NCBI RefSeq assembly: GCF_054482595.1
Contig: NZ_CM137008.1
Reading direction: 5' to 3' (one strand)
DNA length: 64,000 nucleotides
In this document: positions 26,851 to 54,400 of the stretch, piece after piece
How positions within the stretch are numbered: the first letter of the stretch is position 1
How the letters are laid out: every line of letters starts with the position of its first letter
Notes under the pieces: generated by a model
The model's database searches: none
Told to the model about the DNA's origin: nothing
Seen by the model: only the letters and a program-made list of their open reading frames with translations
Program-made: the position numbers and the translations under genes

Positions 26851-29646
26851 ATGGAGATAATTATGAGAAACCTCTGTTTCTTACTGACGTTAGTGGCAAC
26901 TCTGTTGCTCCCCGGGCGGCTGATTGCCGCCGCCTTACCGCAGGATGAAAAGTTAATTACCGGGCAATTGGACAATGGCTTGCGATATATGATTTATCCG
27001 CATGCTCATCCAAAGGATCAGGTAAATTTATGGCTGCAAATTCATACCGGTTCATTGCAGGAAGAAGACAATGAGCGCGGCGTGGCTCATTTTGTAGAAC
27101 ATATGATGTTTAACGGCACAAAAACATGGCCGGGTAATAAAGTCATCGAAACATTTGAGTCAATGGGCCTGCGTTTTGGTCGCGATGTTAATGCCTATAC
27201 CAGCTATGACGAAACGGTGTATCAGGTGAGTTTGCCAACTACGCAGAAACAAAATCTGCAACAAGTGATGGCAATCTTCAGTGAATGGAGTAATGCCGCA
27301 ACCTTTGAAAAACTCGAAGTAGACGCTGAACGCGGCGTAATTACTGAGGAATGGCGTGCCCATCAGGATGCGAAATGGCGCACCTCTCAGGCGCGCCGCC
27401 CTTTCCTGCTGGCTAATACCCGTAATTTAGACCGTGAACCTATCGGCCTGATGGATACTGTCGCCACGGTCACACCGGCACAATTGCGCCAATTTTATCA
27501 ACGCTGGTATCAACCAAATAATATGACCTTTATCGTGGTTGGCGATATCGACAGTAAAGAAGCGCTGGCGCTGATAAAGGATAATTTAAGTAAGCTTCCG
27601 GCTAACAAAGCAGCTGAAAATCGCGTCTGGCCGACAAAAGCCGAAAACCACCTGCGCTTTAATATCATTAATGATAAAGAAAACCGGGTGAACGGCATCG
27701 CACTCTATTATCGCCTGCCAATGGTACAAGTGAACGATGAGCAAAGCTTTATCGAACAAGCTGAATGGAGCATGTTAGTTCAGCTGTTCAATCAACGTCT
27801 GCAGGAACGTATACAGTCGGGCGAGTTGAAGACTATTTCTGGCGGCACTGCGCGCAGCGTTAAAATTGCACCCGATTATCAGTCGCTGTTTTTCCGTGTA
27901 AATGCACGAGACGATAATATGCAGGATGCTGCGAATGCATTAATGGCAGAGTTGGCAACCATTGATCAGCATGGTTTTTCTGCTGAAGAACTCGATGATG
28001 TCAAATCTACCCGCCTCACCTGGCTGAAAAATGCGGTTGATCAGCAAGCTGAACGTGATTTACGTATGCTGACCAGTCGCCTGGCATCCAGCTCATTAAA
28101 TAATACGCCGTTCTTGTCGCCGGAAGAGACATATCAACTTTCGAAACGTCTGTGGCAGCAAATTACCGTGCAAAGTCTGGCGGAAAAATGGCAGCAGTTA
28201 AGAAAGAACCAGGACGCATTTTGGGAGCAAATGGTAAACAATGAGGTTGCCGCAAAAAAAGCATTGTCTCCTGCGGCTATCCTGGCGCTGGAAAAAGAGT
28301 ACGCCAACAAAAAGCTGGCGGCTTACATCTTCCCAGGCAGAAATTTATCGTTAACAGTAGACGCTGACCCACAGGCGGAAATTAGCAGCAAAGAAACGCT
28401 GGCTGAGAATCTGACATCATTAACACTTTCCAATGGTGCCAGGGTTATTCTGGCAAAATCCGCGGGTGAAGAGCAAAAGCTACAAATTATTGCCGTATCG
28501 AATAAAGGCGATTTAAGTTTCCCTGCGCAGCAAAAATCACTTATCGCGCTGGCAAATAAAGCAGTTAGCGGAAGCGGCGTTGGCGAACTCTCCTCTTCCA
28601 GCCTGAAACGCTGGAGTGCGGAAAACTCGGTAACCATGAGCAGTAAAGTCAGTGGCATGAATACGTTGCTCTCCGTTAGCGCGCGGACTAATAACCCTGA
28701 ACCTGGTTTCCAGTTGATTAACCAGCGAATCACCCACAGCACGATTAACGACAATATTTGGGCATCGCTACAAAATGCTCAAATTCAGGCGTTGAAAACG
28801 CTCGACCAGCGTCCAGCGGAGAAATTCGCCCAGCAGATGTATGAGACGCGCTATGCTGATGACCGCACGAAATTACTGCAAGAAAATCAGATTGCACAGT
28901 TTACTGCCGCAGATGCGCTGGCTGCCGATCGCCAGTTGTTTTCATCTCCAGCGGATATCACGTTTGTCATTGTCGGTAATGTCGCAGAAGACAAACTCAT
29001 GGCGTTAATTACGCGTTACTTAGGCTCAATCAAACACTCTGATTCGCCATTAGCCGCAGGTAAACCATTAACTCGCGCGACGGACAACGCATCGGTTACT
29101 GTAAAGGAACAAAATGAACCCGTGGCACAGGTTTCACAGTGGAAGCGTTATGATTCCCGGACACCTGTTAATCTGGCGACGCGTATGGCGCTCGATGCTT
29201 TTAACGTCGCACTGGCAAAAGATCTACGCGTTAATATTCGTGAACAGGCATCTGGGGCATACAGCGTTTCTTCTCGCCTCTCGGTTGATCCTCAGGCCAA
29301 AGATATCAGTCATTTGCTGGCTTTTACTTGTCAACCAGAACGACATGATGAACTGTTAACGTTAGCGAATGAAGTGATGGTTAAGCGTCTGGCTAAAGGG
29401 ATCAGTGAGCAAGAACTGAACGAATACCAGCAAAACGTTCAGCGCAGCCTCGATATCCAACAGCGTAGCGTTCAACAATTAGCGAACACTATTGTAAATA
29501 GTCTTATTCAATATGACGATCCTGCAGCATGGACTGAGCAGGAGCAATTGTTGAAACAAATGACGGTAGAGAATGTTAACACTGCCGTTAAACAATATCT
29601 TTCTCATCCGGTAAATACTTATACCGGAGTATTATTGCCTAAATAA
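26851..29646 (+). CDS. pqqL: Periplasmic M16-family zinc metallopeptidase (931 aa)
   Basis: Signal peptide; inverted zinc-binding motif HxxEH (HFVEH). Confidence 0.9.
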   Translation: MEIIMRNLCFLLTLVATLLLPGRLIAAALPQDEKLITGQLDNGLRYMIYPHAHPKDQVNLWLQIHTGSLQEEDNERGVAHFVEHMMFNGTKTWPGNKVIETFESMGLRFGRDVNAYTSYDETVYQVSLPTTQKQNLQQVMAIFSEWSNAATFEKLEVDAERGVITEEWRAHQDAKWRTSQARRPFLLANTRNLDREPIGLMDTVATVTPAQLRQFYQRWYQPNNMTFIVVGDIDSKEALALIKDNLSKLPANKAAENRVWPTKAENHLRFNIINDKENRVNGIALYYRLPMVQVNDEQSFIEQAEWSMLVQLFNQRLQERIQSGELKTISGGTARSVKIAPDYQSLFFRVNARDDNMQDAANALMAELATIDQHGFSAEELDDVKSTRLTWLKNAVDQQAERDLRMLTSRLASSSLNNTPFLSPEETYQLSKRLWQQITVQSLAEKWQQLRKNQDAFWEQMVNNEVAAKKALSPAAILALEKEYANKKLAAYIFPGRNLSLTVDADPQAEISSKETLAENLTSLTLSNGARVILAKSAGEEQKLQIIAVSNKGDLSFPAQQKSLIALANKAVSGSGVGELSSSSLKRWSAENSVTMSSKVSGMNTLLSVSARTNNPEPGFQLINQRITHSTINDNIWASLQNAQIQALKTLDQRPAEKFAQQMYETRYADDRTKLLQENQIAQFTAADALAADRQLFSSPADITFVIVGNVAEDKLMALITRYLGSIKHSDSPLAAGKPLTRATDNASVTVKEQNEPVAQVSQWKRYDSRTPVNLATRMALDAFNVALAKDLRVNIREQASGAYSVSSRLSVDPQAKDISHLLAFTCQPERHDELLTLANEVMVKRLAKGISEQELNEYQQNVQRSLDIQQRSVQQLANTIVNSLIQYDDPAAWTEQEQLLKQMTVENVNTAVKQYLSHPVNTYTGVLLPK

Positions 29647-29908
29647 TAACAGCCCCGTCAACACATCGTTGGCGGGGATTTTAGCAATATTCGCTATTTT
29701 TATGTAATAATTTTATAAATGCGTTCAAAATAATAACCAAGTACTAATAGTGATATTTTAAGGTCTGATTTTTACGTGATAATTCAGGAGGCACAGAATG
29801 CGCATAAAAATAACAGCATAAAACACCTTACCACCACCCAAGAGCTCTCTACTATATTGTTTTTCAATGAAAAAATATTATTCACGCAATATCTCACCAT
29901 AAATAACA

Positions 29909-29928
29909 TTAGGATTTTGTTATTTAAA
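29909..29928 (+). promoter_or_regulatory. gad box (TTAGGATTTTGTTATTTAAA), GadE/GadX-RcsB binding site upstream of gadB
   Basis: Exact match to the 20-bp gad box consensus about 80 bp upstream of the gadB ATG. Confidence 0.7.
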
Positions 29929-30007
29929 CACGAGTCCTTTGCACTTGCTTACTTTATCGATAAATCCTACTTTTTTAATGCGATCCAATCATTTTAAGGA
30001 GTTTAAA

Positions 30008-31408
30008 ATGGATAAGAAGCAAGTAACGGATTTAAGGTCGGAACTACTCGATTCACGTTTTGGTGCGAAGTCTATTTCCACTATCGCAGAATCAAAACGT
30101 TTTCCGCTGCACGAAATGCGCGACGATGTCGCATTTCAGATTATCAATGACGAATTATATCTTGATGGCAACGCTCGTCAGAACCTGGCCACTTTCTGCC
30201 AGACCTGGGACGACGAAAATGTCCACAAGTTGATGGATTTATCCATTAACAAAAACTGGATCGACAAAGAAGAATATCCGCAATCCGCAGCCATCGACCT
30301 GCGTTGCGTAAATATGGTTGCCGATCTGTGGCATGCGCCTGCGCCGAAAAATGGTCAGGCCGTTGGCACCAACACCATTGGTTCTTCCGAGGCCTGTATG
30401 CTCGGCGGGATGGCGATGAAATGGCGTTGGCGCAAGCGTATGGAAGCTGCAGGCAAACCAACGGATAAACCAAACCTGGTGTGCGGTCCGGTACAAATCT
30501 GCTGGCATAAATTCGCCCGCTACTGGGATGTGGAGCTGCGTGAGATCCCTATGCGCCCCGGTCAGTTGTTTATGGACCCGAAACGCATGATTGAAGCCTG
30601 CGACGAAAACACCATCGGCGTGGTGCCGACTTTCGGCGTGACCTACACCGGTAACTATGAGTTCCCGCAACCGCTGCACGATGCGCTGGATAAATTCCAG
30701 GCCGACACCGGTATCGACATCGACATGCACATCGACGCCGCCAGCGGTGGCTTCCTGGCACCGTTCGTCGCCCCGGATATCGTCTGGGACTTCCGCCTGC
30801 CGCGTGTGAAATCGATCAGTGCTTCAGGCCATAAATTCGGTCTGGCTCCGCTGGGCTGCGGCTGGGTTATCTGGCGTGACGAAGAAGCGCTGCCGCAGGA
30901 ACTGGTGTTCAACGTTGACTACCTGGGTGGTCAAATTGGTACTTTTGCCATCAACTTCTCCCGCCCGGCGGGTCAGGTAATTGCACAGTACTATGAATTC
31001 CTGCGCCTCGGTCGTGAAGGCTATACCAAAGTACAGAACGCCTCTTACCAGGTTGCCGCTTATCTGGCGGATGAAATCGCCAAACTGGGGCCGTATGAGT
31101 TCATCTGTACGGGTCGCCCGGACGAAGGCATCCCGGCGGTTTGCTTCAAACTGAAAGAGGGTGAAGATCCGGGATACACCCTGTACGACCTCTCTGAACG
31201 TCTGCGTCTGCGCGGCTGGCAGGTTCCGGCCTTCACTCTCGGCGGTGAAGCCACCGACATCGTGGTGATGCGCATTATGTGTCGTCGCGGCTTCGAAATG
31301 GACTTTGCTGAACTGTTGCTGGAAGACTACAAAGCCTCCCTGAAATATCTCAGTGATCACCCGAAACTGCAGGGTATTGCCCAACAGAACAGCTTTAAAC
31401 ATACCTGA
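30008..31408 (+). CDS. gadB: Glutamate decarboxylase beta (466 aa)
   Basis: Translation [59 protein letters not shown]...; track ORF starts at an upstream TTG, I chose MDKK. Confidence 0.95.
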
Positions 31409-51436: not shown

Positions 51437-54400
51437 TTACGCCTTCTCGATGTTGACTAAGAACGCTTTATATTCCGGCGTTTGCGAGTTTGCATCACCG
51501 ACATTCGGCGTCAGAGTGTTAGCGATATAACCTTTACGCGCGACACCCTCAAAGCCCCAGTGGATTGGAATACCCACCGTTTCAACCTGCTGACCATTTA
51601 CATTCAGTGGTTTCAGACGACGCGTTACCACAGCCACCGCGCGGATAAAGCCACGCTTGCTTGAGACAGTGACACGATCGCCATTATTAATGCCTTTCGC
51701 CGCCGCCAGCGTTTCGCTGATTTCCACAAACTGTTCCGGCTGAGCAATTGCGTTGAGCAATGCGTGCTTGGTCCAGGTGTGGAAGTGCTCGGTCAGACGA
51801 TAGGTCGTACCCACATACGGGAACTGCTCTTTTTTACCCATCCGCAGTGCGTCTTGTTCATACAGACGAACAACCGGGTTAGACACCACGTTCGGATGCA
51901 GCGGGTTAGTGCCCAGCGGCGTTTCAATCGGCTCGTAGTGTTCCGGGAACGGACCTTCCGCCATTTTGTTGATGGCAAACAGGCGTCCCATCCCTTCCGG
52001 CTGCATGATAAACGGCCCGGTTGGCGTACCCGGTGCGGCATTGCCGAAGTCAGGAATATCGTTACCCGTCCACTTGCTGCCGTTCCACTGGATCAGCATC
52101 CGTTTCGGATCCCACGGTTTACCGTTGATATCCGCCGAAGCACGGTTGTACAGCACGCGACGGTTGAGCGGCCACGCCCAGGCCCATCCCAGCGTATTCC
52201 CCAGACCGGACGGGTCGGAGTTATCGCGGTTAGCCATCTGGTTGCCCTGCTCTGTCCAGCTACCGGTGTAGATCCAGCAAGAAGATGCGGTTGTACCGTC
52301 ATCACGCAGATGCGCAAAGCTACTCAGCAACTGACCTTTCTTCGCAATCAGCACGCCATTAGCATCATAGAGATCTTCCAGCGCATAGCCGTTGTTCTCT
52401 TTAGCTACTTCGTCAGATTGCGGTTCGTGCGGCTGCTTGTAGTTCCAGCTCATCTTCATCAGCGGTTCTACGCCTTTACCACCTTCGGCCTGGTACAGCT
52501 CGCGCAGGTGATGGTAGATACCCGCCAGAATTTCACCGTCGTTACGCGCTTCGCCCGGCGCATCCTGACCTTTCCAGTGCCACTGCAGCCAGCGACCGGA
52601 GTTAGCAATAGAACCATCTTCTTCAGCAAAGCAGGTCGAAGGCAGACGGAATACTTCAGTCTGAATAGACGCCGGATCGACATCGTTCGACTCGCCGTGG
52701 TTCTGCCAGAAGGTTGAGGTTTCAGTCACCAGCGGATCGATAACCACCATGTACTTCAGCTTGCTTAGGCAGCTCACCACTTTGTTTTTGTCCGGGAAGG
52801 ACGCAACCGGGTTAAAGCCCTGGCAGAAATAACCGGTGACTTTGCCTTCATCCATCATGTTGAAATACTTGATGACGTCGTAGGTCTGGTCCCACTTCGG
52901 CAGCCAGTCATAGCCCCAGTTGTTCTCTTTCTGCGCGGCATCGCCATAGAAAGATTTCATCAGGCTAACGAAGAACTTCGGATAGTTGCTCCAGTAGTTC
53001 ACCTGACCAGCCAGCGTCGCTTTCGGCGTGTTCGCTTCCAGATACGACTGCAAATCAACCTGTTTTTCTGACGGCAGCGTCAGATAACCTGGCAGGCTGG
53101 TAGAGAGCAGACCTAAGTCAGTCAGACCCTGAATGTTGGAGTGACCACGCAATGCATTCACGCCGCCACCGGCCATACCCATGTTACCGAGCAGCAACTG
53201 GATCATCGCCATAGTACGGATGTTCTGCGCACCCACGGTGTGCTGCGTCCAGCCCAGCGCGTACAGGAAGGTGGTTGTGCGATTCGGTGCGCTGGTGGAG
53301 GCCAGCACTTCACACACTTTCAGGAAGTCGGCTTTTGGCGTACCACAGATGTTTTCAACAACGTCCGGCGTGTAGCGGGAAACGTGCGCTTTCAGCAGGT
53401 TCCACACACAGCGCGGATGAGTCAGTGTTTCATCGCGTTTCGCATAGCCGTTTTCATCGAACTGATAGTTCCAGGACGATTTATCGTATTGCCGTTTTTC
53501 AGCGTCGTAGCCGCTGAACAGACCGTCTTCGAAAGCAAAATCATCACGCACCAGCAGGCTGGCGTTGGTGTAATGCTTAACGTATTCGGCGTTGATTTTG
53601 TCGTTTTCGATCAGGTAGCGCAAAACGCCAGACAGGAACGTAATGTCCGTACCGGAACGAATAGGTGCGTAAATATCCGCCACAGAAGCGGTACGCGTAA
53701 AACGAGGATCGACAACGATCAAGGTTGCATCGTTGTTGTTTTTCGCTTCCATCGCCCAGCGGAAACCGACGGGATGCGCTTCAGCAGCGTTACCGCCCAT
53801 TACCATTACGACGTTAGCGTTTTTGATATCCACCCAGTGGTTGGTCATCGCACCGCGACCAAATGTTGGAGCAAGACTTGCTACCGTTGGTCCGTGTCAG
53901 ACGCGCGCCTGGTTGTCTACCGCCAGCATCCCGAGGGAGCGGGCAAATTTCTGTGTCAGCATCCCGGTTTCGTTGCTGGCACCGGAGGCACACAGCATAC
54001 CGGTAGAAAGCCAACGGTTTACCGTTACGCCCTGCTCGTTCTTTTCAATAAAGTTAGCGTCACGGTCAGCTTTCATCAGCTTTGCAATACGGGAGAATGC
54101 TTCTTCCCAGCTAATGCGCTGCCATTTGTCAGAACCTGGCGCACGATATTCCGGGTAGCGCAGACGGTTTTCGCTGTTGACGTAATCCAGCAAACCGGCC
54201 CCTTTTGGGCACAGCGCACCACGGCTTACCGGATGATCCGGGTCACCTTCAATGTGATAAATCGCTTCTCTGGCGTTTTTCGCGCCATCACCCAGGCTAT
54301 ACATCAATAGCCCGCAACCTACGGAACAGTATGTGCAGGTGTTACGGATCTCTTTAGCGCGTAATAATTTGTAGTTTCGCGCCTGAGCCAGTGCTTGCTT

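Follow-up and report, generated by a model that had tools for sequence, protein, structure and literature searches.

Which regulators does the 20-bp element in front of gadBC serve: the GadE-RcsB pair, GadX, or both? The gad box is the cis-element that turns on the strongest acid-resistance system of Escherichia coli and Shigella, a glutamate decarboxylase together with an antiporter, and it thereby matters for survival in the stomach. An initial annotation of the 64-kb stretch of DNA analysed here, which we call the window, had placed an exact copy of this box about 80 bp 5' of the gadB start and near -63, and had described it as a binding site of GadE-RcsB and of GadX alike. Here, we ask what the element is, how it is embedded in its promoter and which part of this assignment stands.

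The locus and its gene content

The window is E. coli chromosome at the pqqL / gadB-gadC locus. A 701-bp query around the motif was 100% identical in several complete E. coli chromosomes, e.g. XH990 and O157:H16 Santai, and it matched 5,425 of the 5,426 complete E. coli genomes searched, always at a place annotated pqqL / gadB. The window is collinear with XH990 at 99.99% identity over 38.9 kb, and the annotated order in XH990 is ydeP, safA, ydeO, ydeN, ydeM, yddA, yddB, pqqL, gadB, gadC, digH. The gene 3' of the box is gadB and not gadA, with pqqL before it and gadC after it. Profile searches above the curated cut-offs identified GadB (TIGR01788), GadC (TIGR00910), YdeP (NF007406) and YdeO (NF007407); SafA, for which there is no NCBIfam model, was assigned via the XH990 annotation of the 99.99% identical region. 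The profiles and the XH990 annotation together bear out the initial listing of ydeP, safA-ydeO and gadBC in the window. The coordinates of the gadBC features are collected in Table 1.

Table 1. Features of the gadBC locus, in window coordinates
Feature	Position	Strand	Basis and remarks
pqqL intrinsic terminator hairpin (probable), followed by AUUUU	29653-29677	+	10-bp stem, 5-nt loop
GadX/GadW consensus match AGGTCTGATTTTTACGTGAT	29761-29780	+	about -220 to -201; invariant in sampled E. coli
Equivalent of the K-12 GadE ChIP-exo peak	29902-29933		PMC4918353 Supplementary Table 1, via gap-free alignment of window and K-12
gad box TTAGGATTTTGTTATTTAAA	29909-29928	+	GadE-RcsB activator site; exact and unique; identical to the published string (PMC4918353)
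-35 element TTGCTT	29945-29950	+	3/6 to the sigma-70 consensus; 16-bp rule of PMC2887963
RcsB box CGATAAATCCTA	29958-29969	+	repression at high RcsB; right boundary approximate; PMC2887963 and gadA alignment
-10 element TACTTT	29968-29973	+	3/6; 17 bp from -35, 6-7 nt to the TSS
gadBC TSS, +/-1 nt	29980-29981	+	derived from the table of PMC4918353 and 'centred 63 bp' of PMC2887963
Shine-Dalgarno sequence AAGGAG	29996-30001	+	6 nt 5' of the ATG; invariant across aligned Escherichia gad promoters
gadB, glutamate decarboxylase, 466 aa	30008-31408	+	TIGR01788, 692 bits (cut-off 380)
gadC, glutamate/GABA antiporter, 511 aa	31564-33099	+	TIGR00910, 1030 bits (cut-off 673)

Several features elsewhere in the window were recorded on the way. 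A 1,331-bp IS3-family (IS2-like) element at 9961-11291 sits inside a fimbrial usher gene upstream of ydeS/R/Q. Its ORFs of 136 and 301 aa overlap, its terminal inverted repeats of 32 nt are imperfect, and 5 bp of the target are duplicated; XH990, although 99.99% identical otherwise, lacks the element. At 7769/7770, 877 bp are missing relative to XH990; an HTH pseudogene is lost with them, as are the initial 231 bp of a fimA-like major subunit gene, and the homology to K-12 breaks at the same point. With this deletion and the IS insertion, the fimbrial operon looks doubly inactivated. On the minus strand, at 53844-53902 within fdnG, the Rfam model SECIS_3 matched with 84 bits, above its gathering score, which is the selenocysteine insertion element one expects for formate dehydrogenase-N.

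The genes ydeP and safA-ydeO are two EvgA-activated units. An inverted repeat, TTCYTACANNTGTARGAA, which we take to be an EvgA-box-like consensus, is matched with one mismatch each at 15308-15325 and 17967-17984, and these matches sit 5' of ydeP and of safA-ydeO. They are the only two in the window at up to three mismatches; at least two matches were also obtained in 16 of 100 shuffles. Farther along, the K-12 ChIP-exo data contain two GadX peaks 5' of ydeN, at -69 and -233.5, and report that GadX represses this gene (PMC4918353, Table S3). The equivalents of these peaks should fall within the ydeO-ydeN intergenic region, 19129-19529.

A single exact gad box in front of gadB

The 20-mer TTAGGATTTTGTTATTTAAA is present exactly where the initial annotation had put it, on the plus strand. 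It is the sole match in the 64-kb window when both strands are searched with up to three mismatches, and none of 100 dinucleotide-preserving shuffles of the window contained a match at this threshold. All 20 of its positions agree with the published GadE site TTAGGAttTTgTTATTTAAa, an asymmetric site that had been characterised earlier (PMC4918353), and the conserved G residues of TTAGGA are present.

The position of the element agrees with the literature as well as the sequence does. The gap between its end and the gadB ATG (30008-30010) measures 79 nt, in line with the distance of about 80 bp annotated initially, and the spacer to the TTGCTT -35 element is exactly 16 bp long (29929-29944). 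The GAD box has indeed been described as a 20-bp element that lies 16 bp 5' of the -35 element and is centred 63 bp 5' of the gadA and gadBC transcription start sites (TSSs) (PMC2887963). With the TSS at 29980-29981, a position borrowed from K-12 data, the box of the window extends from about -72 to -53 and has its centre at -61.5 to -62.5, which reproduces the annotated position near -63. The 20-bp element is thus the textbook gad box in the promoter of E. coli gadBC and already fully described, and its intactness signals just a normally wired gadBC promoter in this strain.

A weak core promoter behind a probable terminator

The assigned TSS depends on two closely agreeing values. Primer extension reportedly placed the gadB TSS 27 nt 5' of the ATG, and a distance of 28 nt is implied by the K-12 ChIP-exo table (PMC4918353). 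A scan for the sigma-70 consensus found no plus-strand promoter at gadB, and the published hexamers score 3/6 and 3/6 against this consensus. That a core promoter this weak is missed by a consensus scan fits activator dependence rather than the absence of a promoter. Judged by the C at -13 before TACTTT, the -10 element may be sigma-S-like.

The RcsB box is located just 5' of the -10 element, and gadB is reported to carry C at its left end where gadA has G (PMC2887963); our alignment of gadB with gadA contains this C/G difference, in agreement with that report. RcsB alone protects solely this -10-proximal box, and does so at high concentration only (PMC2887963). The two boxes of the promoter are related in sequence: the gad box has TAGGATT in its left half (29910-29916), and the RcsB box repeats this heptamer in inverted orientation as AATCCTA (29963-29969). 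The inversion is in line with PMC2887963, which points out a similarity between the GAD box's left half and an RcsB half-site, with the critical conserved G in common.

Does gadBC depend on this promoter, or could transcription enter from pqqL? The stem-loop directly 3' of pqqL has a fold energy of -21.2 kcal/mol (z = -5.06), which none of 200 shuffles equalled, and it probably terminates pqqL transcription. If this terminator is functional, gadBC expression relies on its own promoter. A second terminator-like hairpin in a simple scan, at 29607-29628, is weaker and falls within the end of pqqL. Rfam, run over the entire window, gave no RNA family between pqqL and gadB. A 73-aa ORF at 29776-29997 overlaps the promoter, and the matching RefSeq genomes annotate no gene there.

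GadE and RcsB at the gad box

Which proteins bind this box? A heterodimer of RcsB and GadE binds to the GAD box, with a footprint from -50 to -76, while GadE alone does not bind it (PMC2887963). Both ends of the window's box, at about -72 and -53, fall inside this range. The heterodimer footprint, the EMSA and the G-to-C mutagenesis (M1) were performed on the gadA copy, in which the M1 point mutation abolishes activation by GadE (PMC2887963). For gadBC itself, ChIP-exo in K-12 reported a modest GadE peak at 1570144-1570175, -62.5 from the TSS, with a signal-to-noise ratio (S/N) of 2.78 (PMC4918353).

The window and K-12 align without gaps from the box to the ATG. Converted with an offset of 1,976 bp, which we take to separate versions 2 and 3 of the MG1655 coordinates, the peak maps to an interval of the window that contains the box (Table 1). 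The same offset puts the gadA box inside the GadE peak at gadA, so the mapping is self-consistent. Upon deletion of gadE, gadB expression fell from 2532 to 29 FPKM (log2 -6.44, about 87-fold), compared with a change of less than 2-fold (log2 -0.60) upon deletion of gadX (PMC4918353). These occupancy and expression data are K-12 literature for the identical sequence. From the sequence identity with gadA and the in-vivo occupancy by GadE, we infer that the heterodimer also binds at gadB.

The ChIP-exo motif of GadE was of little help in recognising the site. In its text form, TTARGAWWWWAAATA, it has no match at the box at up to two mismatches, the right half of the box disagreeing with it, and its seven matches in the window at this threshold correspond to chance level. 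The K-12 acid fitness island contains no match to it at up to one mismatch. We dropped this motif as a discriminator on account of its chance-level matches and its missing of the known box. One of the two-mismatch matches, TTAGGATTTGTAATA at 15527-15541 (-), lies on the strand opposite to ydeP, 28 bp 5' of its ATG, and is probably meaningless.

The place of GadX and GadW

The initial annotation had assigned the box to GadX as well. Could the 20-mer, alone or in addition to its role for GadE, be an operator of the AraC-family regulators GadX and GadW, which would contact the box or its surroundings in competition with GadE? According to PMC6128205, which relates it at second hand, older in-vitro papers show such a competition of GadX/GadW at the gad box. 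Furthermore, an in-vitro gel shift with MalE-GadX was obtained on a gadB fragment that spans -173 to +77 (PMC3050690) and excludes the GadX/GadW motif match at about -220 to -201.

The in-vivo mapping points elsewhere. At gadBC, ChIP-exo in K-12 reported four GadX peaks, at +66, -184, -225 and -268, with S/N of 42-50 (PMC4918353). Their equivalents in the window are 30026-30066, 29776-29816, 29735-29775 and 29692-29732, respectively, and none of the four overlaps the gad box or sits at -63. Of these peaks, the fragment used in the gel shift retains that at +66 and the edge of that at -184, and the shift therefore does not implicate the box. The sequence agrees with this placement: the GadX/GadW consensus AKGKCTGWTWTTWWYMYVAK finds no match at the box at up to two mismatches, and its sole match in the window at this threshold starts 148 bp 5' of the box and straddles the junction of the equivalents of GadX peaks P6 and P7 (29735-29816). 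The shared GadX/GadW site reportedly has its centre near -220 in the gadBC promoter and near -110 in that of gadA. A model published in NAR in 2010 draws three elements apart from one another, the GadXW, GAD and RcsB boxes, and the response of gadB to the gadX deletion was small against that to the gadE deletion, as given above. On this evidence, we consider a GadX/GadW operator at the 20-mer unlikely.

Thus, of the double assignment made initially, the GadE-RcsB part holds, by its placement in the literature, whereas the best mapping available, with its ChIP-exo peaks and the consensus match elsewhere, gives the GadX part no support. We suggest amending the annotation such that the box is the GadE-RcsB site and GadX/GadW have a site of their own about 150 bp farther 5'.

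Conservation of the box within and beyond E. coli

Is the box itself maintained, or is its sequence shared for other reasons? In K-12, the boxes of gadA and gadB are identical (20/20), which answers the comparison proposed in the initial annotation. One could attribute this identity to a recent duplication or gene conversion of the paralogues, which are about 98% identical, instead of selection. Indeed, the GadA and GadB proteins are 98.7% identical, and similarity extends to the promoter-proximal 60 bp of both genes. However, the 16 bp that follow the box agree at 2/16 positions and the upstream flank is unalignable, so that a conversion tract does not cross the box; an identical box amid diverged flanks is not the product of a simple conversion tract. 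The same island pattern is repeated in other Escherichia species, the region from -205 to -85 is polymorphic within E. coli where the box is not, and the identical gadA box loses its GadE activation by a point mutation (PMC2887963). A mere by-product of duplication or conversion is hence very improbable as the origin of the shared box.

To follow the box across species, the 20-mer was searched by exact match in one genome per species (298 Gb). It occurred at 11 loci, 8 of which belong to Escherichia: two copies each in two E. coli representative genomes and in Escherichia sp. E1V33, and one each in E. albertii and E. whittamii. A GadA/B homologue follows the box after 79-80 nt in all 8 Escherichia loci. 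That the box does not vary among these 8 loci is given by construction, as they were retrieved by exact match, and what the set reveals is a fixed position and divergent flanks. The remaining three exact copies, in metagenome-assembled genomes (MAGs) of Lentisphaeria/Bacteroidales, have no gad homologue nearby and were rejected; their number is about that expected by chance for 298 Gb.

A more sceptical reading would take the element for mere AT-rich DNA upstream of a promoter, a tract that is UP-element-like or bound by H-NS and matches the motif by chance. The box has 85% A+T in an intergenic region of 68%, gadA is among the listed H-NS targets, and the copies in unrelated MAGs show that the 20-mer does arise by chance. 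The shuffled windows yielded no match even at three mismatches, though, the distance to the gad ORF is always the same 79-80 nt in the Escherichia loci found, and GadE occupies the box in vivo in K-12 (PMC4918353). Binding of H-NS would moreover be compatible with an activator site. The positional conservation effectively refutes this reading, to which we attach next to no credence.

The unbiased part of the conservation evidence comes from counts in complete genomes and from the location of single-nucleotide differences. In the 5,426 complete E. coli genomes, the 701-bp query found 10,846 places at gad promoters and 5' coding sequences, and a 40-mer centred on the box found 10,804; about 99.6% of the E. 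coli gad copies thus keep the box. The 40-mer reaches the gadA copies solely via an uninterrupted match of 19-20 bp to the box, as in H55 (query positions 11-30, 100%). The three 40-mer variants sampled, at 97.5% and 95% identity, carry their SNPs in the flanks only. No differences among the sampled E. coli fall in the box, the GadX/GadW motif or any part of the core promoter.

Between the strain and K-12, about 8 positions differ around 29846-29858. These SNPs fall in the spacer between the GadX/GadW motif and the box (about -150 to -85), e.g. GAGCTCTCTACTATATTG against GAATTTCATATTGTATTG in K-12, and one more base differs 5' of the box. The cluster belongs to the segment that is polymorphic across E. 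coli. One might speculate that such spacer SNPs tune silencing of gadBC by H-NS or anti-silencing by GadX, with strain-specific levels of acid resistance, and that GadX/GadW contact the box under conditions outside the ChIP-exo sampling. We rate this as a slim possibility.

A model for the activation of gadBC

Taken together, we are close to certain that the gad box is a class-I-type upstream activator site that is bound by the GadE-RcsB heterodimer and switches on gadBC. GadE, the master regulator of acid resistance, and RcsB at its basal level, both with a helix-turn-helix of the LuxR/FixJ type, would assemble as a heterodimer on the box. The bound heterodimer would recruit or stabilise RNA polymerase, as sigma-S or sigma-70 holoenzyme, at the weak TTGCTT-17-TACTTT promoter, and the geometry, with a centre near -62.5, suggests a class I contact with RNA polymerase. 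Both gadB and gadC would thereby be turned on at acid pH and in stationary phase. When RcsB activity is high, an RcsB homodimer on the second box, by the -10 element, would bring about repression. GadX and GadW would act from their own site farther 5' and also indirectly, via gadE.

Comparison with known systems

How does this promoter compare with other members of the acid-resistance network? GadE also has sites at the hdeA, hdeD and gadE promoters, at -54 and -55 in the case of hdeD and gadE; unlike the gad box, these sites are degenerate. In the 15-kb acid fitness island of K-12, nothing beyond the gadA box lies within three mismatches of the 20-mer. The 42-bp site of GadX/GadW (Tramonti et al. 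2006, 2008; motif AtGtcTGATtTttatattat) shares the promoter region and the regulon with the gad box and acts on gadBC, but it has another sequence and another position and belongs to AraC-family regulators. The RcsB/RcsAB box, a site of LuxR/FixJ-type response regulators, has the inverted AATCCTA in common with the left half of the gad box, whereas the gad box is asymmetric and requires GadE as a partner.

The closest relative outside this locus is the gad box of gadA in the acid fitness island, which has the same 20 bases, the same 16 bp to TTGCTT and the same 79 nt to the ATG; the gadA promoter, like that of gadB, has an RcsB box before its -10 element. The two promoters differ in both flanks of the box, which are unrelated, and in the start of the GadX/GadW motif, 59 bp 5' of the box in gadA and 148 bp in gadB. 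The gadBC gad box of K-12 (Castanie-Cornet & Foster 2001; Ma et al. 2003; cited in PMC2887963 and PMC4918353) is the same element at the same distance from the ATG: the box is without differences, and the core promoter is identical to that of the window from 3 bp past the box to the ATG.
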